Source of the DNA: Anaerolineae bacterium
GTDB taxonomy: Bacteria; Chloroflexota; Anaerolineae; Epilineales; Epilineaceae
NCBI GenBank assembly: GCA_029262755.1
Contig: JAJCYU010000008.1
Span: forward strand, 114-64,113
Reading direction: 5' to 3'
DNA: 64,000 nt
The position numbers were made by a program, and so were the translations under genes. Shown here one piece after another: positions 1 to 16,692 of the stretch (the stretch's first letter is position 1; the number at the start of each line of letters is the position of its first letter). Below the pieces are notes generated by a model, which saw only the letters and a list, made by a program, of their open reading frames with translations, searched no databases and was not told the origin of the DNA.

Positions 1-2791
1 TGCCTGGGAAGAGGAGTCGGCCGACGACTACGACTTGAAGGTGCTCGACGAGGGCTACCGACTCCTGCGGCCGCGCGAGCACTCGGCGCAGGTGCCGGGC
101 GAGGAGCGCGAGTTCATCGAGCGCGCCTTCAAGGGCAATAGCGAATTGGTCAACACCGTCGTGGCCACGCCGACCCTGGAGATGGGCGTCGATATCGGAG
201 CCCTGGACGCGGTCCTGATGCGCAACGTGCCCCCACTACCGGCGAACTACTGGCAGCGCGCCGGTCGCGCCGGACGCCGCCACCGCATGGCCGTCGTCTT
301 GACCTACGCGCGCGGTGCCAGCCACGACCGCGCCTACTTTGAAGAACCGCTCAAGCTCCTGGGTGGCTCCATCGATCCGCCATCCTTCAATCTGCGCAAC
401 GACGTCATGGTGCGGCATCACGTCCACAGCACGGTATTGAGTTGGCTACATCGCAGGGTGCGCAGTGGTGAGGACCTGACGGAGTTCGATCGCACCGAGG
501 TGGCCGAAGCTCTTGGAAAGGCCTTCCCGCCGCGTGTCAGCGAATACCTGTTCAACGACCGGGGAGAGGTGCGCGCCAAGCCGCGCGAGATGAGCCTGCT
601 GCGTCTCGTGATTAGCAAGCACCAGGGGCTTATCTTCGAGCACGTGGAGTCGGTCTTTGGTCAGGGATGGCCCGAGTTGGATAAGAAGGTCGTCGAAGGT
701 GAGCGTCTCAAGCAGTACGTCGATGAGATGGCCGACGAGCTCGAGGTCGTGGTGCATAGGCTCTTCCGCCGGTTGCAGTGGGCGTTGGGCCAACTCAACC
801 GCCTTGAGGATGTTCGCAAGCGCAAGGGCACGCTCGACAAAGAAGACGAGGCGCTGCGCCGGCGTTGCGACAGGCTCGTGCGCCGGCTCAAGGGGCAAAG
901 CTTCGGCGACAAGGGCTCAGCCGAGGGAGTCGATGGTACATGGACGTACGGCGTGCTGTCCGCAGAAGGATTTCTGCCCGGCTATGGCCTAGATACGGGC
1001 TCGATTGTGGCCTATCACCAGCCGGCCTTCGGCTCCGGTCGGCGCGATTGGGAGTTACGTCGTTCCCAGGCCCTGGCGCTGCGCGAGTACGTGCCCGGTA
1101 ACTTGATCTACGCGGCGGGGCAGAAGTACCTCGCACGTAGGTATCACCTTGCGCTGGAAGGCGAGGATGGCAAGGGCCCGGCTCACTACCTGGTCGACCC
1201 CGCGGCCGAAGCGGTGCGCGAGCTGGACGGCTCGTCGAACGGAATGTCCGCAGGGCTCGGAGGCCAGACGATTACCGCCATCCCTATCAGCGATGTCGAT
1301 GTGCCGCACCACTCGTCCATCAGCGACGACGAGACCTATCGCTTCCAGATGCCGGTCTCGATCTTCGGCTACGAGCAGCCGCAGCACGAAGGCGGCACGG
1401 CTCTGTCCTGGAGCAAGAAGCAGCTCCATCACCGGCGCGGCGTGCGGCTGCGGCTGGTCAACGTCGGAGCCGCCACCCTGGTGCGGTCCAAGGGCGAGCT
1501 TGGCTACCCGGTGTGCATGGCCTGCGGCGCGAGCCGCTCGCCCATGGCTAGCCAGGTCGAGCGGGACAAGTTCGCCGAGACCCATCGCTCCAACTGCGGG
1601 CAGCCCGCGGAGCGCATCGGCTTCTACGCTGATGTCGTGGCCGACGCGCTGTCGTTGGTCGACTGCACCGACCGGACCGAGGCCTATAGCGTGATGGAGG
1701 CGCTGCGCCGCGGCGCGGCCGATATCCTGGAGATGGAAATCGAGGACCTTCAGCTGCTGGCCGTCGGCAAGCCAGGCGAGGAGGCGCTCGACATCCTGCT
1801 CTACGACCCCATGCCCGGCGGCTCGGGACTGCTCGACCAGATGGTCGATCGTTGGGCGGAGGTCGTCGCAGCGGCCAATCTCGTGCTCGATTGTCCCGCG
1901 CAATGCGGCGCGGCCTGCGTGGATTGCCTGCAGCGCTTCCGCAACGCGCACATCCATCGCTACCTTGACCGCCATGCAGCACTGGAGCGGCTCGCCGCTT
2001 GGGGCGCGAAGCTCCAGATGAAGCACGCGATCCCGGCCAAGCTGCCGCAGGCGGCGGAGTCAGGCAGTCCTAAAGCGACCAACATGGCGGAGTCCCGGCT
2101 CGCGGCCATGTTCGAGAAAGCCGGATTCCATGGAGCGATTGCCCAGCACGAGATCGAGATCGGCACGAAGTACAAGCGAACGCTTCCCGACTTTTTCTTT
2201 GAAGATTCGGGTGGGCACACGCTCGGGATCTGCGTCTACCTCGATGGGCTGAGTTTGAAGCTGCATGGCAATCCCAAGACTCAGAAGGCCGATGCCTACA
2301 TTACCGATTGGTTGCTCAATGAGGGCTATGCGGTGCGGCGCATCGCTGCGACTGAGCTCGACGATGCCGGAACGATGGGCAATCACTTCTTCTGGCTGGG
2401 CCAGCGACTTGTGAGTGTCCGGCGCGCCAAGGAGCTTCGCGAGCGGCCCAATGATTGGTTCGTGGGACGCGAGGAGGCGAACAACGGGAGTGACGACCGT
2501 GAAGTGTCCAACTGGGATGAGACAATCGACGGTCTGATCGCAGAGCAGTGGCGCACTTTGGCGCGTGGATTGCGCGACGCCGGCCTTGCGGCACCGGACG
2601 ATGGCGCGGGCGACCTCGTAGCGGACGGGTTGGATGGGCGTATGGCAATCATGGTGTGGCAGACAGATCGCGGAGAAGTTGCACTCATCGAGGAGGGAAC
2701 GCCGACCGACGACCCCCGCCATGTGGCCGCCCGTCCCGAAAGCGATCCCGCAGCGGTGGCGCGGGCCGTTCGCGAGCGGATGGGAGGCTGA
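1..2791 (+). CDS. Giant SF2 (DEAD/DEAH-type) helicase, 5'-partial; only the C-terminal ~918 aa lie in the window. Carries helicase motifs V/VI, a DUF1998/MZB-like zinc-ribbon region, a DUF559 (Vsr/restriction-endonuclease-like) domain and a ~120-aa C-terminal tail
   Basis: The reading frame is open from nt 2, so the gene continues upstream. Motif VI QRAGRAGRR and motif V TPTLEMGVDIG are present. Cys clusters YPVCMACGAS and CPAQCGAACVDCLQRF sit ~100 aa apart, as in DUF1998 of MrfA/DrmA/DruE-type helicases. The C-terminal block KRTLPDFFFEDSGGHTLGICVYLDGLSLKLHG...GYAVRRIAATELDD resembles DUF559. Confidence 0.75.
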   Translation, partial: AWEEESADDYDLKVLDEGYRLLRPREHSAQVPGEEREFIERAFKGNSELVNTVVATPTLEMGVDIGALDAVLMRNVPPLPANYWQRAGRAGRRHRMAVVLTYARGASHDRAYFEEPLKLLGGSIDPPSFNLRNDVMVRHHVHSTVLSWLHRRVRSGEDLTEFDRTEVAEALGKAFPPRVSEYLFNDRGEVRAKPREMSLLRLVISKHQGLIFEHVESVFGQGWPELDKKVVEGERLKQYVDEMADELEVVVHRLFRRLQWALGQLNRLEDVRKRKGTLDKEDEALRRRCDRLVRRLKGQSFGDKGSAEGVDGTWTYGVLSAEGFLPGYGLDTGSIVAYHQPAFGSGRRDWELRRSQALALREYVPGNLIYAAGQKYLARRYHLALEGEDGKGPAHYLVDPAAEAVRELDGSSNGMSAGLGGQTITAIPISDVDVPHHSSISDDETYRFQMPVSIFGYEQPQHEGGTALSWSKKQLHHRRGVRLRLVNVGAATLVRSKGELGYPVCMACGASRSPMASQVERDKFAETHRSNCGQPAERIGFYADVVADALSLVDCTDRTEAYSVMEALRRGAADILEMEIEDLQLLAVGKPGEEALDILLYDPMPGGSGLLDQMVDRWAEVVAAANLVLDCPAQCGAACVDCLQRFRNAHIHRYLDRHAALERLAAWGAKLQMKHAIPAKLPQAAESGSPKATNMAESRLAAMFEKAGFHGAIAQHEIEIGTKYKRTLPDFFFEDSGGHTLGICVYLDGLSLKLHGNPKTQKADAYITDWLLNEGYAVRRIAATELDDAGTMGNHFFWLGQRLVSVRRAKELRERPNDWFVGREEANNGSDDREVSNWDETIDGLIAEQWRTLARGLRDAGLAAPDDGAGDLVADGLDGRMAIMVWQTDRGEVALIEEGTPTDDPRHVAARPESDPAAVARAVRERMGG

Positions 2792-2794
2792 CCA

Positions 2795-4858
2795 ATGCGC
2801 ATCGTGCTCGCCGACACGCTGGCCCAGAGTCTCGAAGCACTCGACAAGTCCGTGCGAGGGCTGGTCAAGCGGAAGGTCTTCGATTTCCAACTCGCGCCGG
2901 CCACATCCGGCAAGAGCTATCACCGCATCGATAAGGCACCGCAGCAAGGCTTCTGGTCCTTCCGCGTCAATCGCGACCTGCGATTGGTCGTCTTTCAGGA
3001 GGGCGACCTACGTGTCCTGTGCCACGTCGCCCACCATGACGACGCCTACGAATGGGCGATGCGTCACCGCTACGAGGAACACCCCAACACGACCGAGATC
3101 CAACTCGTGCGCATCGAGAAATCCGTGCGCGAGGTGATCGAGCGGCGGGTGAAGGTCATCGAAGAGTTGCCCCCCCTCTTCACGAAGCATACCGATGATT
3201 ATCTACTTGCCCTCGGCGTTCCGCCTGTCTGGTTGGACGCCATCAAGCTGGTGACGGAGGACACCCTTCTGGAAGCGCTCGACGAATTGCCCAGCGCCGT
3301 AGCCGAGCGTCTGATGCGGCTTTACGAAGGCAAGCCGGTGCCCCGCCCGGTGATCGCCGCGGGAGCGACGGGCTGGGATCACCCCGACACCGCACGCCAC
3401 TTCCGGGTACTGGGCTCCGAGCGCGAGTTGCAGCAGGCGCTGGAGTTCCCATGGCAGAAGTGGATCGTCTTCCTCCATCCCGAGCAGCGCAAAGTGGCCG
3501 AGCGCACCTTTTCCGGATCGGCTCTGGTGACGGGCGGCGCCGGCACGGGCAAGACGGTGGTCGCGCTGCACCGTGCACAACACCTTGCCGAGGCCAATCC
3601 GAACGCGCGCATCCTGCTGACGACGTTCTCGCGCACGCTGTCTGCAAGCCTCGAGCGCAACGCCCGGGTGCTGATGGGTGAGGACAGCCCGCTGTTGGAC
3701 CGCATTCACGTGGCCAACGTGCATCGCTACGCCGTGGAGGCCTACGAGGAAGCGCACGGCGCAGGACCGCATCTGATCAACGACCAGTCGCTCCAATCGC
3801 GGCTAGCCTCGATCTCGGGCCGGCTTGGATTCGACGAGTTCCCCCTCGACTTCATCGAGGCCGAATGGTGGAACGTCATCGATGCTTGGGGAATCCACGA
3901 TTGGTCGAGCTACCTGACTTTCGCCCGGGTTGGCCGCAAGCAGCGGCTGGGCGCCCGTCAACGGCAGCGGATGTGGCGTGTCTTCGAAGCGATGCTGGGC
4001 GAGTTGCGCGCTGACAACCGACAGACCTACAGTGCGCTTTGCGACACATTGCGCCGTGATGTTGAACATGGCCTAGTGCCCCGCTTCGATCACGTCGTCG
4101 TCGATGAAGCTCAGGACTTTGGACCGGCCGAGCTGCGCCTGCTACGGGCGCTCGTGCTGGAGGGGCCGGACGACCTCTTTCTGAGCGGTGACGCCGGGCA
4201 GCGCATCTTCCAGAGCCGCTTCCCGTGGCTGGCCGCCGATATCGACGTGCGCGGCCGATCGAGCACACTGCGTGTCAACTATCGGACCACCGAGCAAATC
4301 CGTCGCTTCGCAGACCGCATGCGCTTCGTCGTGCACGACGAGGCCGACCCGCTATCGCTTGACGAGGGCGCCGTGTCGCTCCTCGGTGGTCCTGAGCCGA
4401 CACTGATCGGCGCCGACGACAAGGCGGGGGAGATATTGACGCTGTCCACTTGGCTGGAAGAGTTGCTCCAAGACGGCTACCAGCCCGAAGACGTGGCCAT
4501 CTTTGCCCGCACCAAGAAGGTCCGCGACGAGCGGGGGCGCCCGGCCATTGAGCGCTCTGGCGCCCGTGTGCATGAGCTCAACGACGATCGCGAGCCGGAG
4601 GCAGGTTGTGTTTCGCTAGGCACGATGCACCGCGCCAAGGGCCTCGAGTTCAAGGCCGTGGCCGTCGCCGGCTGCGACCGGCGGATGCTGCCGCAGGCGT
4701 GGTTAGCCGAACGCATCGGTGACGCGGCCGAGCGCGAAGCCTTCATCGAGCGCGAACGACACGTCTTCTATGTGGCCTGCACCCGGGCACGCGAGCGGCT
4801 GCTGGTAACGTGGGTCGGGGAGGGGAGCGAGTTTCTGGAGGCAGTAGAACGGGATTGA
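2795..4858 (+). CDS. UvrD/PcrA-like SF1 helicase with an N-terminal RelE/ParE-toxin-like domain (~100 aa)
   Basis: Walker A VTGGAGTGKTVVALHRA, Walker B VVVDEAQDF, NYRTTEQI, GTMHRAKGLEFKAVAV and FYVACTRARERLLVT. The N-terminus VNRDLRLVVFQEGDLRVLCHVAHHDDAYEW follows the RelE/ParE sequence pattern. The ATG lies 4 nt after the upstream stop, with a GGAGG-like site inside the upstream gene's 3' end. Confidence 0.8.
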   Translation: MRIVLADTLAQSLEALDKSVRGLVKRKVFDFQLAPATSGKSYHRIDKAPQQGFWSFRVNRDLRLVVFQEGDLRVLCHVAHHDDAYEWAMRHRYEEHPNTTEIQLVRIEKSVREVIERRVKVIEELPPLFTKHTDDYLLALGVPPVWLDAIKLVTEDTLLEALDELPSAVAERLMRLYEGKPVPRPVIAAGATGWDHPDTARHFRVLGSERELQQALEFPWQKWIVFLHPEQRKVAERTFSGSALVTGGAGTGKTVVALHRAQHLAEANPNARILLTTFSRTLSASLERNARVLMGEDSPLLDRIHVANVHRYAVEAYEEAHGAGPHLINDQSLQSRLASISGRLGFDEFPLDFIEAEWWNVIDAWGIHDWSSYLTFARVGRKQRLGARQRQRMWRVFEAMLGELRADNRQTYSALCDTLRRDVEHGLVPRFDHVVVDEAQDFGPAELRLLRALVLEGPDDLFLSGDAGQRIFQSRFPWLAADIDVRGRSSTLRVNYRTTEQIRRFADRMRFVVHDEADPLSLDEGAVSLLGGPEPTLIGADDKAGEILTLSTWLEELLQDGYQPEDVAIFARTKKVRDERGRPAIERSGARVHELNDDREPEAGCVSLGTMHRAKGLEFKAVAVAGCDRRMLPQAWLAERIGDAAEREAFIERERHVFYVACTRARERLLVTWVGEGSEFLEAVERD

Positions 4859-4906: not shown

Positions 4907-6058
4907 CTACGAAGCGACCTGTAGAGCCTCCAACACAATGAAGCCGTCGATGGCAGCGCTCTCCGGAAGGGCACGCACCTGCTCGTCGAGCTCCATGGGT
5001 CGAACGTTGTGTTCGGCCATCAATTCGTACTGAAGTGCATATCCTTCAAGCACGCCGGCGCGCGCAGTTAGTCGGTTCATGAACGGGACGACCACGTCCA
5101 AGTCTCGCTGTCGTTGCTCGGCCGGCGAAGGCGCCGTGAACCGGTCCCGAATGCGTGACGCCGATAGGGCTGCGCGTGCCTTGTGGACATCCTCGAATTG
5201 GGGCTTGCGGATCGTTCGCTCGTCGTAGTAGGGGCCAAGCTCGCGCCGAAGGTCGTCCAACCGATCGCTCGCGTGATCTGAGTCCTCGTTCGCGAAACTG
5301 AGCCAAGCCGACAGGGTTGTTAGAGATACAGAGTCCACAAAATCGGCGTGCAGGAAGCGATGCGGTTCGTCGCCTAGCAGCAGATCGTTCGCAAAGCGCC
5401 TGGTATGGTCGCGCCACACCTCAATTCCGTCGGCGAGCTCGGAGGCCGCAAGGTTCATTGAGCCCATGTCGGCTTGACAACGGGCGAGGCCGAGTAGGGC
5501 GATGCAGAAGATCTGCTCGTTGGCGTCTGCCACGGTGATCTCCTCGGAATGCGCCAGCGCGTTGCGGTATTGGTGCGTCTTCACCGACAGATCGCGATAG
5601 GCATCCACCAAGACCTCTCGCTGGGCATCACCGTCCGCCATCTGAACCACCTTGGCCACTCGCTCCAGCGCGGCGTGCAGCTCCGCTCGCTCGCGGCGTT
5701 CGAGCAATTCGCGGATGGCTCTGACGTCGCGCGCGACAGATTCAAGGCGCTTCTCTAGCCGGTCCAACATCACGAACAGGGTCGAGAACCCTACGGCCGA
5801 GACGGCCAGGTTGAGTGCGGAGAAGGCCATCGTGGCCTGCATGCCTTGGAGGAGGAGAGGGGCGGATGCCGAAAGACGCGCCAACTCAGCTTGTTGTGGA
5901 ATCACCAGGTGGCGCACGATCTGACCGGCTCCCTCCTCTCCGGCCGCTCGGCGAACGACACCGCCGAGTACGGTGCACCGACGTGCATCTACGCAGGGAA
6001 GGACGTCGAGGGGCAGCGAACGCATGACGTTCATGCCGAGGATGCTCGAGTCGATCAT
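4907..6058 (-). CDS. Hypothetical protein with one predicted TM helix (AFSALNLAVSAVGFSTLFVML) followed by a coiled-coil-like region; start may instead be at 5842
   Basis: Long ORF, hydrophobic segment, no recognisable catalytic motifs. Sits on the same strand downstream of the two PD-(D/E)xK genes. Confidence 0.5.
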   Translation of the reverse strand: MIDSSILGMNVMRSLPLDVLPCVDARRCTVLGGVVRRAAGEEGAGQIVRHLVIPQQAELARLSASAPLLLQGMQATMAFSALNLAVSAVGFSTLFVMLDRLEKRLESVARDVRAIRELLERRERAELHAALERVAKVVQMADGDAQREVLVDAYRDLSVKTHQYRNALAHSEEITVADANEQIFCIALLGLARCQADMGSMNLAASELADGIEVWRDHTRRFANDLLLGDEPHRFLHADFVDSVSLTTLSAWLSFANEDSDHASDRLDDLRRELGPYYDERTIRKPQFEDVHKARAALSASRIRDRFTAPSPAEQRQRDLDVVVPFMNRLTARAGVLEGYALQYELMAEHNVRPMELDEQVRALPESAAIDGFIVLEALQVAS

Positions 6059-6227
6059 GGGAAGGCCCTCGATAGGTATGACGTTGAAGAATCGACGCGG
6101 TAGGCCCCACGGTGGGGCAGGGCTTGCAAGCGCTTATCCACGCACGTGAAAAACGTTGAAGTTCAACCACCCTAGCACAGCCCAATTGGCCTGCGCCACC
6201 AGTGTTCTGCTCGCTGATCCATCGGAC

Positions 6228-7067
6228 CTACACAGGGTGCACGTGCTCGATGACATGCACTGCCAGCGTGTTGCGTACCGGAACCAGTTCGTTGGGCAAG
6301 GCTCCTTCGAGCACAAGGGCCGTCTCGACCCCGGTGTCCCTTCCAAGAACCGCGAGCTCTGCCTTCAGCACCGCAGCGTACTTCACACACTGGAACAGTC
6401 CACGTAAGAGGTCAACGGTGGATGCATTGCGTGCCTTGACCTCAACGGCGAGCCAAGTGGCCGGTCCGCGGAAGAGCACGTCAATCTTGTCGGCCGACGG
6501 TAAGCCGTACTCGATCTCGCTGTCGACTCCGTGGGCAAGGCCAACGACCTTCGAGTGCGCCGCCACAAACTTTTTTAGCCGAAGGTGGAGTTCTCCCTCT
6601 CCGCCAGCACGATAGCCGCGTACACGCTCTAGAAGACTGGATGGGACGGCCGGCGGTGCATCCTCAAGATCGAAGTGCGAGAGCACTTGCGGCCAACGAG
6701 AGTAGGCGAAGATCTGGGACCAGAAAGCTAGAGCGAGCTTGCGTTTCGCTCGTAGGGAGCGCGATGCGTAGTCGGGCACGTTTAACGGGTATCCAACGAT
6801 TCCCTCACCTGGCACGCGAGTTTCCTTGCTGACGACAAGGAACTGTATCGGTGGGATCTCCGTTCCCCATCGATCACCTAGCGCGGTGAGATCCCATCCG
6901 ATGGCGCCGAGCACGTAGTTCAGATTGCGTGCGTTTGGCATTCTCAACTCTTCAGCCAAAGCGGAATATGTGATGGGCTGCTCGGCGTGGGCCTGACGCA
7001 CGAGGAGCGGAAGCGCACTACGGGCGCGCCGTTGGTAAAGTTCGTCTCCCTGCATAGTTTGAGCCAT
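6228..7067 (-). CDS. PD-(D/E)xK nuclease-fold protein (restriction-endonuclease-like), otherwise hypothetical
   Basis: C-terminal motif IDVLF...WLAVEVKARN...QCVKY gives D…EVK. Strong RBS GGGAGGAGG before the ATG at 7067 (MAQTMQGDELYQ). The ORF extends to a GTG at 7106. Confidence 0.6.
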   Translation of the reverse strand: MAQTMQGDELYQRRARSALPLLVRQAHAEQPITYSALAEELRMPNARNLNYVLGAIGWDLTALGDRWGTEIPPIQFLVVSKETRVPGEGIVGYPLNVPDYASRSLRAKRKLALAFWSQIFAYSRWPQVLSHFDLEDAPPAVPSSLLERVRGYRAGGEGELHLRLKKFVAAHSKVVGLAHGVDSEIEYGLPSADKIDVLFRGPATWLAVEVKARNASTVDLLRGLFQCVKYAAVLKAELAVLGRDTGVETALVLEGALPNELVPVRNTLAVHVIEHVHPV

Positions 7068-7112
7068 GCGCCTCCTCCCGTGGACATGATGTAGTGAACC
7101 TGGCACGGCAGA

Positions 7113-8555
7113 TCAAACTCCCAGTGGAGCGACTCCCAGCCGCCGATCCCTCGCGTCGCGAATCTCGCACACAGTCTCATGCAGCACGTCGGCCTTCGGC
7201 AGGATCTCGTCGCCGTGCAGCCTCAGCGCCGGTTTCAGCTCATCGACGTACGTGGCGAACACGCGGCAGCCTTCCGGTGCGGCGATGATGAACGAGGCCG
7301 ATCCGACCTGCAAGGCGTAGGAACGGCCTTGCATCGCAGCGTCCTTCCAGTCCTCGCGGCGCACGAGGGAGTGCTTGGCCTCCACGATGGTCAGCAGCCG
7401 GCCTTCGCCGTCGCGAACCAGGTAGTCGATCCGGCCTAGGATGCGCTGCGAGCCGAGTCGGAACTCGCAGGCGTGTTCGCGAATCGAGCGCCCGCCCATT
7501 TTCTTGAGCACGCCTTCGAGGCAGTCCTTGCAGAAGGCGTCCTCGTCCGGATAGTCGCCCGCACGACGAATTCGGTCGAAAGCCGCGGCAGCCACTGAAG
7601 GGGTGGCCGTCTCCGATGGGCTTTCACCTTGCAGCAACTCATGAAGTCGTACGCGCATGCGCGGCGGGATCGACTCCGCTACCAAGCCGTTGAATCGTGA
7701 CTTGACGAGGCCCCATTGCGCGAGCACCTCGTCGGCCATCATCTCCGCGAAGGTCAAGTGACCTGAACTATCGACACGCCGAAGGTCCACGTTGCACGCA
7801 CGCCACCGCGCTAGCGGATCGATGCCGGGCAACCCATCCACCTCAAACACATCGGTGATCGCCCGAGTGTCTGCCATCCGGTACACGTAAACCTTTTCGC
7901 CCGGCGCCATCTCCATTCGCCCAGACCAGGTGACCGTCTCGTTCTCGAGCTCCGCGTAGTCACCCGGCTTGCAGGCAACTAGCCACGCCCGCTCGCCGTC
8001 GCCGCGCCGCACGTGCAGCGGGATCAGGTCGTCGTAGAGGAAGCGCCAGAGGCGAAACTGAAGCTCGAAGCGATCTCGCGGACGCTTGAGAAGAGTGCCG
8101 ACTGAGGTCCGGCGCGGCCACCACTCCTCCGCCAACTCAAAGAGTGCGTCACCGATTTTGCGCCATCGGTCGAGAGCGCGCTGTCCGCTGCCGAAGGCAT
8201 GAAACGAAAACGCGAGACGCGGTTCTGCGGCGCTAAGGAAGGCGAGTCCATCGAAGAGCTCGCGGTCGTAGTACGGCGCGCGCCACAGAAGGAAGTGGTC
8301 TGGATGGGCACGCGCCAACATCGCGGTGGACTCTACGAGCTTGCCGCGAAGTGTCTTGCTGCGGCGCACGCGACCGTAGGCCGTCGCGGGTGTGTCACGG
8401 TCCAGGTTGGCCAGGACGCGTGGCTTCCTCTTGTAGCCATATCGGATCTGGTCGACCAGTGCCCGCGGCTCGATTCGCCGGAAGCGCTCGTACGACGATA
8501 GATCCGCCTCGGCCGCTCGGGCGATGAGGCGTTCGAGCATGACGTTGGCGTTCAT
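7113..8555 (-). CDS. Hypothetical two-domain protein: central possible PUA-like (EVE/ASCH-type) barrel plus C-terminal PD-(D/E)xK nuclease domain
   Basis: GRIDYLVRDGEGRLLTIVEAKHS gives D…EAK. The central segment WLVACKPGDYAELENETVTWSGRMEMAPGEKVYVYR is EVE-like. RBS GGAAGGAG lies 8 nt before the ATG at 8555 (MNANVMLERL). Confidence 0.6.
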   Translation of the reverse strand: MNANVMLERLIARAAEADLSSYERFRRIEPRALVDQIRYGYKRKPRVLANLDRDTPATAYGRVRRSKTLRGKLVESTAMLARAHPDHFLLWRAPYYDRELFDGLAFLSAAEPRLAFSFHAFGSGQRALDRWRKIGDALFELAEEWWPRRTSVGTLLKRPRDRFELQFRLWRFLYDDLIPLHVRRGDGERAWLVACKPGDYAELENETVTWSGRMEMAPGEKVYVYRMADTRAITDVFEVDGLPGIDPLARWRACNVDLRRVDSSGHLTFAEMMADEVLAQWGLVKSRFNGLVAESIPPRMRVRLHELLQGESPSETATPSVAAAAFDRIRRAGDYPDEDAFCKDCLEGVLKKMGGRSIREHACEFRLGSQRILGRIDYLVRDGEGRLLTIVEAKHSLVRREDWKDAAMQGRSYALQVGSASFIIAAPEGCRVFATYVDELKPALRLHGDEILPKADVLHETVCEIRDARDRRLGVAPLGV

Positions 8556-9089
8556 GGTGAGCACTCCTTCCTATCATGCCGAAGTCAGTGCTGAAACGCG
8601 GGACCGTCCGCACGATACAGTGTGCCGTGCCCACCGTCATGTGGGTTCTCCAGCAGCGGATCAGCTGCGCGGTCAGCCGGCCAACTCGGAGCTTGCGTTG
8701 CGCTCAACTGACCGTCGGCCTCGCTCGGTCCAAATCGTCGCCCCAAAACGAAAAATCTTAGGGCCAAGGTGCCACGCCCAAGCGCCTTACGGTCTCGCCC
8801 AACGCCAAGGATTAATGCGGTGCGGGTTTCTTATTGTCGTTTGGCGAAAGCGGGTTGAACGGCGAGTGGAGGCTGTATGGGGGTAAACAATGGTGTTGGA
8901 ACGGACGGGCCGTCGCTTTCGGGGATGAAATCGCCGACTTCATTGATCCCAAGGAGGTGCTCCGTGGTCGGATAGAGGCGGTATGAGACGAGCGCCCTGA
9001 CTCCACAACTGTACGATGGTCCTTCGCTGAGATGCTGACTAGACACAAGCGAGGCTCGGCAACGCGCTCGTACGATCGTCCCCGAATCG

Positions 9090-9953
9090 TCACGGGCCGG
9101 GGAAGGCAATCAGTGCATCTCCGATGGGATAGGCATCGTCCGGACATGAATCGCCGTAGAATAACGGGTCGCCCCACTCGGTATCCGCTGTCCATTGGAA
9201 CGGACCCTTCAGGCGCGCTAGCCGGGAGCGTGGAACCGTGACAGTTAGAGTCTGGCCGTCGACGACGGGCCCTACCAGATCGAATGACTTCGAGGCAACA
9301 AAGTCGAATATGGCCGCGTACCAGTTTGCTCTGATCAACTCGGCGCTGATCGTGTAAAGGGTTCGATCTTCGTAAACAATGCTCGCGCCCCAAAAGTACG
9401 CGTCGAACTCAGACCCTAGCACGCTGGAGTCAGACGGGATTGGGCCTACGGCATCAAAGGCCACCTTGAGGGAGTTTCCGTCGGCTTCGAGGCGTACGGC
9501 TTGCAAATCGAGCCCAGGAATGGGGTCGGGCGGAGCGGTGCCATCCCCATCGCCCGTGTCGCCCACGCTGTCCGAGCAGACGGCTGAACCCTTGAACGTG
9601 AACTCTTGCGCCGGAGTGCGTTGCCTCTGCGTTGTGGAAGTTGGTGTTCGAGGTGTCTTTGTGGGCGCATCGGATTCCGCGTCCGAATTGCTCGAAGCCT
9701 CGGCGGCCGATTCGGATGGGGTAGCGGTGTGGGTGACCGACGCCCCCGATCCTTCGCTAGCCGCCTGCGGAGTTGACGTTGCTGCGCGGTCACCGTCGTT
9801 GTCCGAGGGAAGCGACTGCACTTCACCGCACGCTCCACAGACTGCGAAGGGAGCCAGGCCCGCCAGAACCAGCACCTTCCGCCAGCCGCGTCCGCGACTA
9901 CAGGCTGGAATGCCATTCTTGGGTGCCAAAGTGTCGCCCGTGCCACTTCTCAT
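9090..9953 (-). CDS. Secreted or lipoprotein-like hypothetical protein with a Ser/Thr/Pro/Asp-rich linker and a C-terminal globular domain
   Basis: Signal-peptide-like VLVLAGLAPFAVCGAC followed by a low-complexity ST-rich region. The start codon is uncertain. Confidence 0.5.
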   Translation of the reverse strand: MRSGTGDTLAPKNGIPACSRGRGWRKVLVLAGLAPFAVCGACGEVQSLPSDNDGDRAATSTPQAASEGSGASVTHTATPSESAAEASSNSDAESDAPTKTPRTPTSTTQRQRTPAQEFTFKGSAVCSDSVGDTGDGDGTAPPDPIPGLDLQAVRLEADGNSLKVAFDAVGPIPSDSSVLGSEFDAYFWGASIVYEDRTLYTISAELIRANWYAAIFDFVASKSFDLVGPVVDGQTLTVTVPRSRLARLKGPFQWTADTEWGDPLFYGDSCPDDAYPIGDALIAFPGP

Positions 9954-10159
9954 AAAGCCTTCTCCCCATAGCCTCTCGGTTGCCGCGATGAGTAATGATC
10001 CCCTCAATCGCAGCCCGCGCAAGGCTGTCGTAGAATCGGCGGTAGGGTCGGTAAGTGCACACCACCCTCCTGACCGAGCCGCATCTCGCTCGGTGTAGGA
10101 GCAGAGGCGAGATGCGACCGTCTAGAACGAATCCAGCCCGGCCCAGATAATGGAACAAG

Positions 10160-10785
10160 GTGTCCACTCGGCTGTACCACCTCACCCATGGCAGCAACCT
10201 GGCGGCGATCATCGCGCAGGGTGGATTGCGCTGCAAGCGGCAATTGCGGGAGGCCAACGTCGACCATCGAGACGTCGCGCGGCGCCCCCTGCAGGAGAGG
10301 AGATCCACCAGGCAGGTTCGTAAAGGGCCTGGCGGCACACTCCACGATTTCGTGCCTCTCTACTTCGCGCCGCGACCGCCCATGCTTTACGCGCTACTCG
10401 ATCCGAAGAGGCCAGATGGTCCTGTCGACGAACGCGCGATGAACTATCTGGTCACCGACACAGACATGGTCGAGCGTCACGAGCGACCCTTCGTCTTCAC
10501 CGATGGCCACGCGGTGATGGGGTTCACGCAGTTCCACAACAGTCTTGATGAACTGCCTCTGCTGGACTGGGAGGTCATTGAAAGCAGAGACTGGGCGGAC
10601 ACTAACGACGATCCGGACCGAAAGCGACGCAAGCAAGCCGAATTCCTCATTGCCGAGGAGGTTCCCTGGGCGATGATTCAGGAGATGGAGTCTTCGATGA
10701 GGTTGTCGAAGCCCGCGTTCGCGAGATCGTGCGCCAGGCCGGATCGGATCACGAGCCGACGGTACGCGTGCAACCCGGCTGGTAA
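10160..10785 (+). CDS. darT: DarT (DUF4433) ssDNA thymidine ADP-ribosyltransferase toxin with an apparent 1-nt frameshift near 10679–10689 (pseudogene or sequencing error)
   Basis: N-terminus VSTRLYHLTHGSNLAAIIAQGGL is the DUF4433 signature. Frame A runs through EFLIAEEVPWAMIQ. A second frame then reads GVFDEVVEARVREIVRQAGSDHEPTVRVQPGW*, which matches a DarT C-terminus. The span is 626 nt, one short of 3n. GTG start. Confidence 0.75.
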
Positions 10786-10808
10786 TATCATGTTGGAGGG
10801 AGGTCCCG

Positions 10809-11870
10809 ATGATCGAGCTTGGACGTGGCAACATTCTAGAGGTCGAAGCCGAGGCGCTCGTGAACACCGTCAACTGCGTCGGTGTTATGGGCAAGGGCAT
10901 CGCTCTGCAGTTCAAGCGGGCCTTTCCGCACAATTACGCTGCCTACCGGAAAGCGTGCGACGCAGGCGACGTCGCCCCTGGACGAATGCACGTCCATGCG
11001 ACGTCATCCTTGGTCGGGCCTCGGATCATCATCAACTTCCCGACGAAGCGCCACTGGCGCAATCCTTCTCAACTGGACGACGTCACGGAAGGGCTACGCG
11101 ACCTCGTCTGGATCGTGCGGGAGCACGGGATTCAGTCGATTGCGGTACCTCCGCTCGGATGCGGCAATGGCGGCCTTGATTGGGCGCAGGTGGAACCGCT
11201 CATCCGGAAGGCGTTCGAGCCGCTCGAAACAGTGCGCGTCATTCTCTATACGCCTGGTTACGCGCCCAGCGCGCGCGAGCGCCGACCGGCGCCCGGAGCG
11301 TGGAAGTGGACACCTGCCCGATCGCTGATGGTGCAGCTGATGGATGCTTACCGTCAGGGCGAGTACCGACTAAGCCTGCTTGAGATACAGAAACTCGCCT
11401 ACTTCATGCAGGAGGCGGGCGAGCCGATGAAGTTGAACTTCGTCAAGGCCGTGTACGGGCCGTACGCGGACAACGTGAGCCACCTGCTCCAGTCGATGGA
11501 AGGCCACGCGATCGATGGGGCAACAGACGAGCGGTCACCCGAAACGGAGATCGGGCTGCTCGAAGGCGCGGCCGAAGAGGCCCGCGACTATGCGATCGAT
11601 TCGTCTACGGTGGGCAGGCTCACTAGGGTGCTCAGCCTTATCGAAGGCTTCGAGACGCCGTATGGGATGGAGCTGCTCGCTTCGGTGCATTGGGTAGCGC
11701 GCGAGAGCGTGACCCACGAGAGGCCGTTGAATGACGATGCGCTTGTTCAGGCTATTCACGCCTGGAACGAGCGGAAGCGTCGATTGCTCAAGCCGGAGCA
11801 CATTCGCGTTGCGGCGAAGCATCTGCGCGCTCATGGTTGGATGGGCCAGTCATTGGCCGTGCCGGCCTAG
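10809..11870 (+). CDS. darG: DarG antitoxin (N-terminal macrodomain, ADP-ribosyl-DNA glycohydrolase)
   Basis: ILEVEAEALVNTVNCVGVMGKGIALQFKRAFP is a macrodomain signature. GGAGG RBS. Position is immediately after darT. Confidence 0.85.
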   Translation: MIELGRGNILEVEAEALVNTVNCVGVMGKGIALQFKRAFPHNYAAYRKACDAGDVAPGRMHVHATSSLVGPRIIINFPTKRHWRNPSQLDDVTEGLRDLVWIVREHGIQSIAVPPLGCGNGGLDWAQVEPLIRKAFEPLETVRVILYTPGYAPSARERRPAPGAWKWTPARSLMVQLMDAYRQGEYRLSLLEIQKLAYFMQEAGEPMKLNFVKAVYGPYADNVSHLLQSMEGHAIDGATDERSPETEIGLLEGAAEEARDYAIDSSTVGRLTRVLSLIEGFETPYGMELLASVHWVARESVTHERPLNDDALVQAIHAWNERKRRLLKPEHIRVAAKHLRAHGWMGQSLAVPA

Positions 11871-12219: not shown

Positions 12220-12890
12220 TGCGCGATTGCCAGCTCCCCGGAGCCACCACCCCATGACCATCTACGACCGCATCGGCCACCACTACGCCACGCGCCGCCG
12301 CCAAGACCCCCTTCGTCGAAGGCGAAGCCGTACTCGCCGCGGAGGCCGTTGAGGATGGCGTTGCTGCCGGCCTCGCCGACGTGGTAGTGGTAACCGGGCA
12401 CAGCGTCGGAGTGGCCGCCGTTCGCGTCGAGGTCCGTCGGCGCTTGGCCGGCCTCGTCGTGGCTGGCGCAGAGGCCGTAGCCGTCGACGGCGTAGCCGAT
12501 GAGCGGTGCGTGATCTTCCTCGGTCGCCACCTCAACCGTGCAGCCGGTGTGGGCGCGGTAGTGGTAGCCGGCCACGGGGTTGACGTGACCGCCGCAGTCG
12601 TCGAAGGGTGCCAGGGTGTAGGCGCCGAGGATGGCGTCGACGGGGGCGGCCAGGTCCTGCGCGGCCTCTTGCGCTCCCGTTTGCTGCGCTCCGGCCTGTT
12701 ACACGCCGGTCTCTGGCGCGTCGGAATCCGGCGCCTCGCGGTCTTCTGGGGCCTGCTCGACGGCCTCCGGCGCGGCCATTCGCGCGGTCGGGGGAGGGTC
12801 GACCGGCCGGGCGCAACCGGCGAGCGGCACGAGCGCTGCGAGGACGTCCGCGGCCAAGGAGGCCGGGAGAGATGCGCGGGACGGGTGCAT
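12087..12890 (-). pseudogene. YHYH-family lipoprotein gene interrupted by an in-frame TAA (12699–12701); its 3' end runs into the inverted-repeat element
   Basis: Lipoprotein signal MHPSRASLPASLAADVLAALVPLAGC, then ...PETGV*QAGAQQ... in the same frame, then GYHYRAHTGC and GYHYHVGEAG (YHYH motifs). Confidence 0.55.
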
Positions 12891-13036
12891 GGGACGACTC
12901 TGAAGGGCGAAGCGACGCGCCCGGGTTGCACAACGGGGTGGAGGATACGGGTCGTCTGTTAGGCGGCGGCAAGGGGCGGCGCAAGGAGAAGGTTGGTTGA
13001 CTGCGATGGCGAGCGGTGGGGTCGCCAATCTCACGG

Positions 13037-15868
13037 TCAGGAGGTCTCGTCGCTCCCTCCGCCGCCGTCCCCGCCGCCCGTACCACCGCCCTCCTGCGCC
13101 ACCCGCCGCATGATGCGCCGTGCCACGCGCTCGATCCCGAGCGCAGCGCCCTCCGCGCGCGCCGCCGCGTGCGCCTGCGTGCGCAGCGGCTCGAGGACCC
13201 GGTCGTAGTCCTCCACGGCGAGGTCGAGGTGACCTTCGGCGGCACCGACGATCCACGCCGCCTCCTCGCCGCGGTCGAGGTCCAGGCACGTTATGGCGAG
13301 AGCGGCCAAGGCGAGGCAGATGTAATTCTCCGTCCCGAGGTTCTGTTCCGAGCGTAGCAGGTAGTCCAGGCTATTGAGGAGGATGGGCATGGCGTCTCGC
13401 GTTCGTCCGTCCAGGGCCAGGGAGGCGGCCCACTCGGTCTTCGACTTGGCGACCATGTCGCGGTTGCCCAACGCGGCGTAGCCTTCGATTGCGCTGCATG
13501 CATGCTCCGCGGCGGCGCCGGGTTCGCCGAGCCGGCGATAGCAGATGGCGACCATGCTGTGGGCGCCCGCCTCGTACTGCTGGTAGCGGATGCCGCGGAA
13601 GACGTCCAGCGCCTCCTGGAAGCCGGCGAGCGATTCCTCGAGCCGCCCTTGTTGCATGCGCAGATTGGCCAAGGTGGCTAGTGAGGTGCCGAGCGTCACC
13701 GAGTTGATGTCGCTGCGGTCTAGGCCGAGGACCTCCTCCAGCAGTTGCTCCGCCCTCGACGCAAGGCCGATGTTGGATGCCGTAAGGGCCGCTGTCTGCA
13801 GCGCCTGACCAAGGCCACGTGAGGTGCCTTCCTCGCGTACGAGAGCCAATCTGCGCAGGGCCGCCTCGTAGGCTGCTTCCCGCTTGTTTTGAAATTTCAG
13901 GAGCGAATGCTCGATATACGCCGCAAGCCGCCGTTCCTCGGGGCCGTCGGCACCGTGGGCCAGAACGTGCGCTTCTTCCAACAACGTCATCGCGGCCTGC
14001 GACTCACCACGGACATAGAGCTGGCGTCCCAGGGAACAAAGTGCCCGCGCTCGAAGAAGGCTCTGCTCGGCAGGCGTATCCCGTTCCAAGAGCACGTGCG
14101 CGAGCGCGAGCAGATCGGGCATCGCATAGCGCACCGTCCAGTAGGCGATGACGTTCGCGAAGACCTTCATGCCCGCGGTCACGTCGCCCTCGGTGCTTGC
14201 CCAGCGCAGCGCGGCGAGGAGGTTGTCGCGATCGCGATCGAGCCGATCCAGCGTATCCGACATCGCCTCTCCCCTCAGGCCGTCTCTCGCTGAATCGCAC
14301 AGCGCCGCGGCCCACGCGAGATGCCGCTCGCGCAGCCGGACCTCGGCGCCCGCTTCGGCCAGGCGCTGCGCGGCGAACGCGCGCACCGACTCCAGCAGGT
14401 CGTAGCGCGGGGGGGTGTCGTCGGTGTCCACAGTCACCAGCGATTTCTCGACGAGCTCGCTGAGCAGGTCCAGCACCGCCCAATCCTCGACCGCCTCGCC
14501 GGCGCAGACGGCCTCCGCCGCCTCCAGGTCGAAGCCGCCGGCGAAGACGCACAGTCGTTGCAGCAGCGCCTGCTCGGGCTCGTCGAGCAGGCGGTAGCTC
14601 CAGTCCAGCGTCTCGTGCAGGGCCTGGTGGCGGGGCAGTGCCGTGCGCCGGCCGGCGGTGAGCAGGCGGAAGCGCTGGTCGAGGCGGTCGAGGATCTGCC
14701 GGGGCGACATCGCCTTTACCCGCGCCGCCGCCAACTCGATGGCCAGCGGCAGACCGTCCAGGCGCCGGCAGAGCTCCACCACGTCGGCCGTGTTGCCGGC
14801 GTCGAGCGCGAAGTCGCGCCGAACAGCCTTCGCGCGGTCGAGAAAGAGTCGTACCGCGGCGTAGTCCGCGGCCGTTTCGGGTGTCGGGGGCGCTTCGTTC
14901 TCGGGCGGCGCGCTGAGGGCCGGCACGGCGTAGACGTGCTCGCCGTCAACGCGCAAGGCCTCGCGGCTGGTGGCCAGGACGCTCAGGCCGGGATGGGCCA
15001 TGGCGAGCGATTCGACGAGCGTCGCGCAGGAATCGATGACATGTTCGCAGTTGTCGAGCAGCAGCAGGAGCCGGCGCTCCTGCAGGAAGTCGTGCAGGGT
15101 GGCCTCCAGCGGCCGTCCCGGCTGCTCGCGCAGGCCGAGGCCCGCGGCCACCGATTCGACCACGCCCGCGCCGGGCTGGAGGGACGCAAGGTCAACCAGC
15201 CACGCGCCCTGCGGGAAGCTGCGCAAGGCCTGGAGCGCGGCGTGCAGCGCCAGCCGCGTCTTGCCCGTGCCGCCGGGGCCGGTGAGGGTGACGATGCCGT
15301 GGCGCCCGATGGCCTCCGTGACATGGGCCAACGAGCGCTGGCGCCCCACGAAGCTGCTGCGCCCGCGCGGAAGATTGTGCGGCGGGTCGGCGGAGCCGGC
15401 GGCGACGGGCGCGCCGGCCGGGGGCCCGGCGAGGTCGGCGTCGGAGCCGAACCCAGAGCGGGCGCGTTGGGCGGCGGCCTCGTCGCCCAGCGCGCGGTGC
15501 ACGCTCTCGGCCAGGCGGGGCAGGGCGGCGTCGAAGCCGAGGGCATGAGCGTCCACGTACTGGATGCGCCCGAGCTGGAAGTGCAGCTCGGTGGGCTGGA
15601 GCAGCACGGGCAGCACCGGCGTGCCGCGATCCAGGGCGTGCTGCCACTCGTCCTCGACGTTGGAGGAGGCCATGGCCGCCGGCGTCACGACGAGGATGAG
15701 GACGTCCGCCGAACGTAGCGCCTCTTGGATGGCCGTGCTCCAGCGCGCGCCGCCGTGGATGCCCTCACGGTCGATCCACGGCTCGATGCCGTGCGCGGGC
15801 AGGGCGGCGGCCAGGCGACGCGTAAACGGCTCGTCGCAGCGAGCGTAGCTGAGGAAGGCGCGGATCAT
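13037..15868 (-). CDS. TIR–NB-ARC–TPR STAND NTPase (bacterial TIR-domain STAND; candidate antiviral sensor with NADase effector)
   Basis: TIR domain FLSYARCDEP...WIDREGIHGGARW...ADVLILVVTPAAMASSNVEDEW contains the catalytic-Glu motif. P-loop GPGGTGKTRLAL, Walker B LLLLLDNCEH, LATSRE, then multiple TPR-like repeats. The ATG shares an ATGA overlap with the upstream ATPase stop. Confidence 0.85.
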   Translation of the reverse strand: MIRAFLSYARCDEPFTRRLAAALPAHGIEPWIDREGIHGGARWSTAIQEALRSADVLILVVTPAAMASSNVEDEWQHALDRGTPVLPVLLQPTELHFQLGRIQYVDAHALGFDAALPRLAESVHRALGDEAAAQRARSGFGSDADLAGPPAGAPVAAGSADPPHNLPRGRSSFVGRQRSLAHVTEAIGRHGIVTLTGPGGTGKTRLALHAALQALRSFPQGAWLVDLASLQPGAGVVESVAAGLGLREQPGRPLEATLHDFLQERRLLLLLDNCEHVIDSCATLVESLAMAHPGLSVLATSREALRVDGEHVYAVPALSAPPENEAPPTPETAADYAAVRLFLDRAKAVRRDFALDAGNTADVVELCRRLDGLPLAIELAAARVKAMSPRQILDRLDQRFRLLTAGRRTALPRHQALHETLDWSYRLLDEPEQALLQRLCVFAGGFDLEAAEAVCAGEAVEDWAVLDLLSELVEKSLVTVDTDDTPPRYDLLESVRAFAAQRLAEAGAEVRLRERHLAWAAALCDSARDGLRGEAMSDTLDRLDRDRDNLLAALRWASTEGDVTAGMKVFANVIAYWTVRYAMPDLLALAHVLLERDTPAEQSLLRARALCSLGRQLYVRGESQAAMTLLEEAHVLAHGADGPEERRLAAYIEHSLLKFQNKREAAYEAALRRLALVREEGTSRGLGQALQTAALTASNIGLASRAEQLLEEVLGLDRSDINSVTLGTSLATLANLRMQQGRLEESLAGFQEALDVFRGIRYQQYEAGAHSMVAICYRRLGEPGAAAEHACSAIEGYAALGNRDMVAKSKTEWAASLALDGRTRDAMPILLNSLDYLLRSEQNLGTENYICLALAALAITCLDLDRGEEAAWIVGAAEGHLDLAVEDYDRVLEPLRTQAHAAARAEGAALGIERVARRIMRRVAQEGGGTGGGDGGGGSDETS

Positions 15869-16431
15869 GGACGCCACCCCCACAACGCCCCCACGGGCAC
15901 GGCATGGATGTTCGCCGCGAAGGGCACGACCTCGCTGCCGCCGTAGATCACCAAGCCGCGGTGGAAGCGCTCGCCGGCCAGTTCGGCGAAGGCGCGGATG
16001 CCGCGCAGGTGACGATCGGAGAGGGAGGTGGAGGCCTTCACCTCGATGGCCACGCAGCGGCCCTGAGCGTCTTCCAGGATGAGGTCAACTTCCCGTCCTC
16101 GATGCGTGCGCAGGTGGTGGAGGTGGGCGCGCGTCGTCGACCAACCCAGCTGCTTGGCGATCTCCGTCGACACGAAGGTCTCGAGCAACGGGCCGATGGG
16201 CGTGGGCTCGGTGCGCAGACGCTCCGGGCTCAAGCCCAGGAGGTGGGCCGCAAGGCCGGAGTCGCTGATCACGGTCGCGTCGTCCAACGGGAGATAGCGT
16301 GCGGGGAGGGCCTCTTCCGCAAGGGCGCGGACGAGCGTGCTCTTGCCGACCTGCCGCGCGCCCGACAGGAAGACGACGGGCGTATCGGCAAGTGCGGCCA
16401 GCAAAGGTGGTGTTAGGGCGCGGGGCTTCAT
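15865..16431 (-). CDS. Short DUF4143-family ATP-binding protein: Walker A followed directly by the DUF4143/PD-(D/E)xK module, with the central AAA region missing
   Basis: FLSGARQVGKSTLVRAL, and VDLILEDAQGRCVAIEVKAS gives D…EVK. Only 188 aa, versus ~400 aa for typical COG1373 members. Confidence 0.7.
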   Translation of the reverse strand: MKPRALTPPLLAALADTPVVFLSGARQVGKSTLVRALAEEALPARYLPLDDATVISDSGLAAHLLGLSPERLRTEPTPIGPLLETFVSTEIAKQLGWSTTRAHLHHLRTHRGREVDLILEDAQGRCVAIEVKASTSLSDRHLRGIRAFAELAGERFHRGLVIYGGSEVVPFAANIHAVPVGALWGWRP

Positions 16432-16454
16432 GGGCGAGAGCGTAGTACGTGTGT

Positions 16455-16493
16455 GGTGGAATATCCACCACGCTATGGCGGATATTCCACCGT
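16455..16493. promoter_or_regulatory. Inverted pair of GGTGGAATATCC(A/G)CC motifs 25–60 bp upstream of the ATPase/TIR operon start; candidate operator
   Basis: gtggtggaatatccaccac ... atggcggatattccaccgtg; the second copy is the reverse complement of the first. Confidence 0.4.
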
Positions 16494-16525
16494 GTACGAA
16501 CGGGCGTGGCCATCCGGTCGCACAC

Positions 16526-16692
16526 CTAGTAGTCCAACCAGCCTGAATCTACGGGTTCGGGAGCCACTGCATCCACGCCAGCGGCCCGCCGCTCGTCGGC
16601 AATAGCGATGCTATTCAGTCCTCTCTGCGAACCACCGGCGCGGCGCATTGGCTCCCTCACTACCCGCATCTCCAAGCTGGTTGGACTACTAG
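16526..16692. repeat. Perfect 17-bp inverted repeat pair (CTAGTAGTCCAACCAGC / GCTGGTTGGACTACTAG) flanking 133 bp; MITE-like element or long RNA stem
   Basis: Exact reverse-complement match at 16526–16542 and 16676–16692. Confidence 0.5.

Follow-up and report, generated by a model that had tools for sequence, protein, structure and literature searches.

An ArmC-ArmD helicase gene pair at a contig edge of an Anaerolineae bacterium is probably the 3′ end of an ARMADA operon

Our subject is a pair of adjacent helicase genes at one end of contig JAJCYU010000008.1, from an Anaerolineae bacterium. The window, meaning the whole 64-kb stretch of DNA analysed, opens with these two genes (all features are in Table 1). 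We call them armC and armD, after components of ARMADA, an antiviral system discussed below. An earlier note, made from the window alone, had described a coupled helicase gene pair. Both genes are found where it placed them and tight coupling is supported. No stop codon interrupts the armC reading frame between the window edge and a TGA at positions 2789-2791. Note that the gene is cut by the contig and window edge, so that its truncation reflects the assembly rather than the biology. Since the fragment aligns to residues 1067-2002 of a 2004-residue homologous helicase from Sorangium (52% identity), approximately 1060 N-terminal residues are missing. The start codon of armD, ATG at position 2795, lies beyond a spacer of 3 nucleotides (CCA), not 4 as previously counted. 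Homologous ArmC-ArmD pairs elsewhere have a 4-nucleotide overlap instead of a spacer. The second gene had been called complete and this is correct; it is a 687-codon open reading frame, from 2795 to 4858, with an ATG start. A scan for promoters and terminators 3′ of armD found nothing.

The ArmC fragment has three parts that the earlier note had recognized: a YprA/DruE-type helicase, DUF1998-like zinc ribbons, and a C-terminal endonuclease of DUF559/Vsr-like fold. The helicase matches Helicase_C in Pfam and, in PADLOC-DB 2.0 (2023), the best matches are DruE3 (1.7e-57) and DruE1 (2.6e-53). Two conserved helicase stretches, TPTLEMGVDIG and NVPPLPANYWQRAGRAGR, served as scan patterns. The zinc ribbons correspond to a match to PF09369, and the cysteine motifs quoted for them, CMACGAS and CPAQCGAACVDC, are present in the translation. 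Similarly, the DUF1998/MZB cysteines are invariant in two homologue alignments. Full-length ArmC relatives have DEAD, Helicase_C and MZB domains. To align the nuclease, homologues were gathered with the full 929-residue fragment, giving 48 sequences (the window plus database homologues). Residues E697, D730, D748-G749, and H755 are invariant across all 48, consistent with an active site. The E/D/D-G/H columns of the Vsr motif are also invariant when E. coli ArmC is included, in a MAFFT alignment of five sequences. A structure model of residues 640-929 has a mean predicted local distance difference test score (pLDDT) of 83, and a fold test of the C-terminal nuclease returned the Vsr fold. The nuclease domain of ArmC is predicted to be active. 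Behind it, the model contains a second small alpha/beta domain, at residues 838-929 (model residues 199-290), with pLDDT between 87 and 98. We refer to this domain as the tail.

The product of the second gene is 33% identical to ArmD of E. coli O157 Sakai, encoded by ECs_5264 (residues 2-683 against 7-703, E-value 3.75e-98). It is 42-47% identical to the products of ArmD genes that directly follow ArmC in 11 other loci. The helicase motifs are intact, with Walker A reading GTGKT (K253) and Walker B reading DEAQD (D437/E438). In PADLOC, the best match is a NERD+UvrD candidate (C3a187, 3e-30), with RTasHel (1.7e-24) and GajB (7e-24) also matched. The proposal that a RelE/ParE-like domain is fused to a UvrD-like helicase was borne out, by matches to UvrD-helicase and UvrD_C on one side and by toxin folds on the other. 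Briefly, residues 1-220 were modelled from 67 sequences (pLDDT 82). When this model was compared with the PDB using Foldseek, the first 26 matches were all YoeB, RelE, RelK, YafQ, HigB, or related toxins. The best was YoeB (2a6r_C, 1.5e-4); probabilities were 0.99-1.00, and the top matches had target TM-scores of 0.64-0.72. The Pfam family HigB-like_toxin was matched by 24 of 31 family N-terminal domains (best 4e-6). A sequence profile search of the PDB gave only YoeB (0.15), RelE3 (0.27), and RelK, all weakly (0.15-1.3). Within the domain, R63, H81, Y85, and W87 are invariant and R57 and H80 nearly so. We take the pattern FRV..D.R...(H)H..AY to parallel the catalytic Arg/His/Tyr of YoeB and RelE, presuming that our alignment to YoeB, made by eye, is correct. 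These residues argue for a retained function directed at nucleic acid. Note that ArmD shares the fold of RelE/YoeB/HigB type II toxins over residues 1-106, but differs from them in being fused to a helicase, with no separate antitoxin gene.

Members of the ArmD family also occur without ArmC. One is beside McrBC (locus L095, 10001-12064), another directly follows an SbcCD and AddAB-like block (L096, 10001-12064), and others follow an HNH gene (L001-L005; in L001, the ArmD-family gene is at 9314-11425 and the HNH protein before it has 570 residues). Such contexts account for three of the eight sampled from the ArmD side. Hence, the family is broader than ARMADA. One ArmD homologue of 721 residues (P0096) starts with the ArmC Vsr motif (…TTPDFFF…ICIYLDG…), in frame with the ArmD N-terminal domain. 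It reflects either fusion of ArmC to ArmD by a deletion or an error of assembly. In locus L007, the region directly 3′ of the ARMADA operon (12510-17219) encodes a NERD-domain protein and a second, distinct UvrD-like helicase, which has 695 residues and 28% identity to ArmD.

ARMADA, the disARM-related antiviral defence array, was described by Bell et al. in 2025 (PMC12458937). According to the text of that preprint, ArmA is a BrxHII/RapA-like SNF2 helicase and ArmB a PglX-like methyltransferase. ArmC combines a YprA-like helicase and, at its C-terminus, a Vsr nuclease; ArmD is a RelE-UvrD protein that is the hallmark of Type II (PMC12458937). The same text reports that ARMADA of E. coli NCTC 12900 protects against 13 of 80 phages with no arrest of growth, and that protection by ArmABCD is direct and non-abortive. 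Protection was lost in Walker mutants of ArmA, ArmC, and ArmD, and in an NPPW mutant of ArmB (PMC12458937). In strain EDL933, deletion of any of armA-D resulted in sensitivity to phage Bas18, with the armD deletion being mildest (10.1101/2025.09.22.677730). The reference operon of E. coli O157:H7 Sakai (L013) comprises ECs_5261 (ArmA), ECs_5262 (ArmB), ECs_5263 (ArmC, 2113 residues), and ECs_5264 (ArmD, 704 residues). It is located downstream of Zorya II and Druantia III, agreeing with the publication. We conclude that positions 2-4858 of the window are very probably the 3′ end of an ARMADA operon, consisting of the C-terminal 929 residues of ArmC and a complete ArmD. According to the earlier note, no named system matches the pair, which might be a new two-helicase module. 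Instead, the pair is ArmC-ArmD of ARMADA (PMC12458937; 10.1101/2025.09.22.677730). It is a further instance of a system already described, which received its name and its validation in 2025. The defence role that was proposed is supported, in that the homologous E. coli operon protects against phages.

The gene order of relatives bears on this assignment. One genome per species was scanned with the five-sequence alignment; this gave 594 relatives, and 80 loci were kept. ARMADA relatives have a patchy distribution across phyla. The two genes co-occur in other genomes, the ArmC-ArmD arrangement being repeated at loci of armD homologues. In L006, L007, L008, L094, and L097, an ArmC-like protein of 1916-2004 residues, with DEAD, Helicase_C, and MZB domains, overlaps the start of ArmD by 4 nucleotides. 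A very large methyltransferase of MmeI/Eco57I type is found upstream in four of these five loci (not L094), and the upstream methyltransferase of relatives scores as DISARM DrmMI (4.6e-92). ArmA-like and ArmB-like genes are located 5′ of the helicase in many of the 80 loci. The ArmB-like methyltransferase is upstream in L006, L007, L008, L018, L029, L068, L075, and L097. ArmA is upstream in L029, L068, and L075, together with many relatives lacking ArmD. The complete ArmA-ArmB-ArmC-ArmD set is present in L029, L068, and L075. When E. coli DruH was used as a tblastn query, neither the relatives nor the window gave a match. When the pair was first considered novel, a methylase just upstream in a described system had been named beforehand as the finding that would overturn the idea, and this is what the relatives with ArmA and ArmB upstream have. 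A further remark had been that no methyltransferase is visible in the window. This stands as an observation, since tblastn finds none. It does not stand as a trait of the system; the contig ends inside armC and relatives carry the methyltransferase upstream, so the absence is an artefact of the contig end.

Some relatives have additional genes between ArmB and ArmC. In the Sorangium locus (L006, 1222-3993), these encode an HEC-01A ATPase (PADLOC 5e-164) and a DUF6968 protein. Locus L008 (1972-4113) has a Gp49/HTH toxin-antitoxin-like pair, and L097 (351-4191) has a gene for a GmrSD_N protein. These inserts fit the pattern of ‘embedded defence genes’. Hma/HEC, as named by PADLOC, was considered as an identity for the armC-armD pair and rejected; the HEC-01A ATPase is an extra gene embedded in the Sorangium locus.

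To place ArmC among ARMADA types, we used a neighbour-joining tree, a distance tree only, of the 789 columns shared with the fragment; two E. coli DruE sequences were the outgroup. One clade contains E. coli ArmC, L007, L008, and L091-L093. A second clade contains the window ArmC, the Sorangium protein, and most other loci, with 47-57% identity to the window ArmC. Identity to the E. coli/L007/L008 clade is 22-26%. The part of Table S1 available lists BTVJ01000041.1 (L053), JAFGNZ010000063.1 (L029), JAIPFF010000043.1 (L075), and Cobetia UBU49917.1 as “ARMADA Type I helicase” (PMC12458937). The Cobetia protein and the L045 helicase share a 90% cluster. The window ArmC falls inside the clade with these listed helicases. 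Conversely, it is outside the Type II helicase subclade (E. coli WP_000937974 type), and is 22% identical to E. coli ArmC.

Gene content gives a different picture. ArmD, which distinguishes Type II, is present as the second gene. For Type I, the preprint text gives the order ArmC, then ArmA and ArmB, and ArmD is not mentioned there (PMC12458937). In the window, ArmD follows ArmC, and the order in sampled close relatives is A-B-C(-D), so the locus departs from Type I order as that text has it. The features shared with Type II (E. coli NCTC 12900, EDL933 z5899-z5902, and Sakai ECs_5261-5264) are tight ArmC-ArmD coupling, a YprA-like ArmC that has DUF1998 and, C-terminally, a Vsr-fold nuclease, and the A-B-C-D order seen among relatives. 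The differences are that the body of the window ArmC has only 22-24% identity and belongs to another ARMADA helicase clade, and that its tail is undetectable in E. coli ArmC with the tail model described below. With Type I, the window shares the Vsr nuclease and 47-57% identity to the helicases of L053, L029, L075, and the L045 cluster. It differs in having ArmD, and in the A-B-C(-D) order of sampled relatives, as far as the preprint text defines that type. By phylogeny, therefore, the gene looks like a Type I-clade armC; by gene content, and by A-B-C-D order in relatives, the locus looks Type II-like. Membership of ARMADA is well supported, and each type as written fails in one respect.

We examined the tail in the 48 loci where the 3′ end of ArmC is intact and downstream sequence extends for 2.3 kb or more. 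Using a hidden Markov model (HMM) of the tail, nine loci have both tail and ArmD and 39 have neither. No locus has the tail without ArmD, or ArmD without the tail (Fisher p 6e-10, with shared ancestry ignored). Loci with ArmD are in at least four separate places of the neighbour-joining tree, and three further tail positives (L007, L008, and L097) are from the other clade. Comparing the tail profile with a Vsr profile, using hhalign, detected no similarity. The tail HMM did not match E. coli ArmC, for which the preprint text suggests a duplicated Vsr domain (PMC12458937). In addition, the tail was not found in the 570-residue HNH protein whose gene precedes that of P0003, the closest ArmD homologue. 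The window ArmD is 46.6% identical to ArmD proteins that accompany the distant L007, L008, and L097 helicases, and 42.5-46.3% identical to those accompanying close helicases. Likewise, the tail is 33-37% identical to tails of the L007, L008, and L097 helicases and 25-47% identical to close ones. The body of ArmC, however, is 26% identical to L007 and L008 versus 50-57% for close relatives.

Because the tail tracks ArmD, and the histories of ArmD and tail are decoupled from that of the ArmC body, these comparisons suggest that ArmD and the tail travel together in one cassette, with the tail serving as the surface through which ArmC interacts with ArmD. In its full form our proposal is tentative, and we hold it as a possibility falling a little short of even. 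It states that ArmD and the tail of approximately 90 residues are a portable cassette, grafted repeatedly onto ARMADA helicase clades, and that the tail docks ArmD, defining a subtype that the preprint text does not classify. In such a cassette, the tail may mask the RelE-like domain of ArmD in the manner of an antitoxin. Neither a strict link between tail and ArmD nor ArmD in the Type I clade is reported in the text of the ARMADA preprint.

Helicases without ArmD can have a different ending. Of the 39 such proteins, 14 end in a domain of about 175 residues that, in phmmer searches, is like the C-terminus of the Marinobacter (L045) helicase. These are L020, L028, L030, L031, L033-L035, L039, L045, L046, L048, L059, L071, and L072. 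Homologues in the clade have precomputed Pfam matches to PF00717 (Peptidase_S24), and JGI names of ‘LexA’. The ending, which goes unmentioned in the main text of the ARMADA preprint, is probably LexA/S24-peptidase-like.

How might these proteins work together? By homology, ArmB would mark host DNA as self, working with the SNF2 translocase ArmA; ArmA and ArmC would both be ATP-driven translocases. ArmC would be the effector, with a YprA-type motor, beneath an OB-CON-DUF1998 zinc canopy, tracking along invading DNA. Its Vsr-fold nuclease (E697, D730, D748, and H755) would cut this DNA, in a manner analogous to DruE. ArmD, translated in step with ArmC, would be an accessory superfamily 1 helicase. 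We propose that ArmD could be recruited via the ArmC tail. The RelE/YoeB-like domain of ArmD, in which the Arg/His/Tyr residues of active toxins are retained, could act on RNA or on the end of a nucleic acid, either by binding or by cleavage.

The remaining features of the window are consistent with the defence island described by the earlier note, with DarTG and TIR-STAND genes confirmed. The listed open reading frame for DarT, at 10160-11179, overlaps the start of DarG at 10809. Probably, the true DarT ends near 10809 or the two genes overlap. The TIR-STAND-TPR gene is an Avs/STAND-like defence candidate with no strong match to a named PADLOC system. Between ARMADA and DarTG, three consecutive genes are convergent with armD and may be an uncharacterised defence operon. 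The only match for the 383-residue product is a short N-terminal one to JukB in PADLOC (residues 11-59, 2.5e-16). The G+C fraction is 0.62-0.66 in the first 12 kb and 0.64-0.75 over most of the remaining window; the lower value fits a horizontally acquired island. Housekeeping genes are present in the distal part, among them those for urocanase (46923-48815), a GDPD/FG-GAP protein, and a transporter fusion of ABC/ECF type (53229-57467).

Table 1. Features of the ArmC-ArmD locus and neighbouring genes, with positions in the window
Feature	Position	Strand	Description or evidence
armC, 3′ part	2-2791	+	Last 929 residues of a YprA/DruE-type superfamily 2 helicase-nuclease of about 2000 residues; 5′ end cut
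RecA2/Helicase_C, C-terminal part (region of motifs IV-VI)	80-280	+	Pfam PF00271, residues 27-93, 1.5e-10
DUF1998/MZB zinc module of OB-CON-DUF1998 canopy	1697-1930	+	Pfam PF09369, residues 566-643, 2.6e-8
Vsr/DUF559-fold nuclease domain (PD-(D/E)xK superfamily), predicted active	2081-2416	+	Conserved E697, D730, D748, G749, H755, D764
ArmC C-terminal tail domain, about 92 residues, alpha-alpha-beta4-alpha	2513-2788	+	Structure model, tail HMM
Shine-Dalgarno-like GGGAGG for armD	2782-2787	+	Within the end of armC, 7 nucleotides before ATG; sequence reading
armD, complete, 687 residues, RelE-like N-terminal domain and UvrD/GajB-like superfamily 1 helicase	2795-4858	+	Similarity to ECs_5264
RelE/YoeB-fold domain of ArmD, residues 1-106	2795-3112	+	Foldseek, Pfam, conservation
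UvrD-type superfamily 1 helicase core of ArmD	3476-4855	+	Pfam UvrD-helicase 4.8e-18, UvrD_C 1.2e-18
Three consecutive genes (383, 292, and 483 residues), convergent with armD	4907-8564	-	No Pfam match
DarT/DarG	10160-11870	+	DarT: Pfam 2.6e-47, PADLOC 1.4e-52; DarG (Macro domain): PADLOC 1.8e-126
TIR-STAND(NB-ARC/nSTAND1)-TPR protein, 948 residues	13037-15883	-	TIR_2 2e-25

Several points weigh against assignment of the pair to ARMADA, or against parts of our model. In pairwise BLAST, the window ArmC is 24% identical to E. coli ArmC (3.6e-33) and 26% identical to E. coli DruE (1.6e-34). The 2023 version of PADLOC names the gene DruE and, among the PADLOC matches listed, neither gene has an ARMADA match, nor do the E. 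coli-like relatives. No ArmA-like or ArmB-like sequence was found by tblastn in the window, where the contig ends inside armC. Likewise, neither gene was found in the available upstream flank of L044 (10 kb) or L094 (4.2 kb). The assignment to a type depends on the neighbour-joining tree and on part of Table S1. Experimental support for ARMADA comes from E. coli, and not from the clade of the window ArmC. Finally, docking by the tail and an RNase activity of ArmD are our own inferences.

The BLAST and PADLOC results can be read differently, as a Druantia system with a type III-like DruE and an unrelated UvrD gene next to it. The best PADLOC matches are to DruE3 and DruE1, and the window ArmC has as much BLAST identity to E. 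coli DruE as to E. coli ArmC. The two proteins are alike in being giant YprA-family helicase-nuclease effectors with a common helicase/DUF1998 core. However, the C-terminal nuclease here has the Vsr fold, and not the tandem PLD fold of type III DruE. Druantia III has a DruH partner and no methyltransferase, SNF2, or UvrD partner, whereas relatives of the window pair have no DruH-like gene, and SNF2 and methyltransferase genes instead. Furthermore, the UvrD gene is coupled to armC and co-varies with a domain of its product, and close relatives are named ARMADA helicases in the part of Table S1 available. Hence, a Druantia origin is very improbable. In 2026 preprints, DruE is described as a helicase-nuclease acting on replication intermediates that contain single-stranded DNA or are forked. 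As a separate observation, K-12 yjiT and the pseudogene yjiV (L011, 4415-8856) appear to be remnants of Druantia III DruH-DruE. An intact DruH-DruE, with a helicase of 2114 residues, is found at the same site in NMBU-W13E19, next to mcrBC (L012, 15266-24905).

We give even less credence, indeed almost none, to a housekeeping DNA-repair pair of MrfA/YprA-like and UvrD/PcrA-like helicases. Both families include repair enzymes, and NCBIfam matches to PcrA/UvrD exist, but every NCBIfam score is far below the equivalog threshold. The phyletic distribution is patchy, the locus adjoins DarTG and TIR-STAND in a stretch of lower G+C, and the homologous operon protects against phages. Other named systems share single components. 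DISARM class 1 (DrmD, DrmMI, DrmA, DrmB, and DrmC) resembles ARMADA in its SNF2 helicase, DrmMI-like adenine methyltransferase, and DUF1998 helicase module. In DISARM, however, DUF1998 is in a separate protein, DrmB, the PLD nuclease DrmC is also separate, and ArmD is lacking. Membership was rejected, because armC encodes DUF1998 and nuclease in one polypeptide. Similarly, ArmD shares the UvrD-type superfamily 1 ATPase core of Gabija GajB (GajB models match with 7e-24), but has an extra RelE-like N-terminal domain, and its best PADLOC match is NERD+UvrD (C3a187) rather than GajB. Gabija was rejected since there is no adjacent GajA-type OLD/TOPRIM gene; the upstream gene is armC and the downstream gene is convergent and unrelated.

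A more serious alternative, although still unlikely, is that ArmC and ArmD form a self-contained module, without a methyltransferase or SNF2 partner, as a methylation-independent offshoot of ARMADA. Of the readings considered, this one comes nearest to the two-helicase module of the earlier note. The absence of ArmA and ArmB from the window, and from the L044 and L094 flanks, is what such a module would predict, and many clade members are solitary ArmC genes. In L044, neighbouring large open reading frames are on the opposite strand. Against this, most ArmD-linked relatives with enough upstream sequence carry the methyltransferase, or ArmA and ArmB. Furthermore, other genes frequently lie between ArmB and ArmC, so that ArmB can be several kilobases away; little weight therefore attaches to absence from a short flank. 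All four arm genes are needed in E. coli. Hence, we favour the 3′ end of an ARMADA operon that continues beyond the contig edge.

With this identification, the presence of ArmD in a helicase clade labelled Type I, in the part of Table S1 available, blurs the boundary between Types I and II as written. The 2023 version of PADLOC calls ArmC “DruE” and ArmD “GajB/NERD+UvrD”, and so ARMADA loci will continue to be mistaken for helicase pairs that are orphan or novel. This gap in the tools especially concerns loci truncated by contig ends. If the cassette proposal is true, the locus would be an unclassified ARMADA subtype, with a Type I helicase in a Type II architecture. Within the Type I clade, the cassette would alternate with the LexA/S24-peptidase-like ending, or the helicase would lack any additional C-terminal domain. 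If the tail also acts as a mask, systems with the cassette would have a second output, one that can be switched and may be aimed at RNA. How the least understood component of ARMADA is recruited could be approached through the strict link of the ArmC tail to ArmD.

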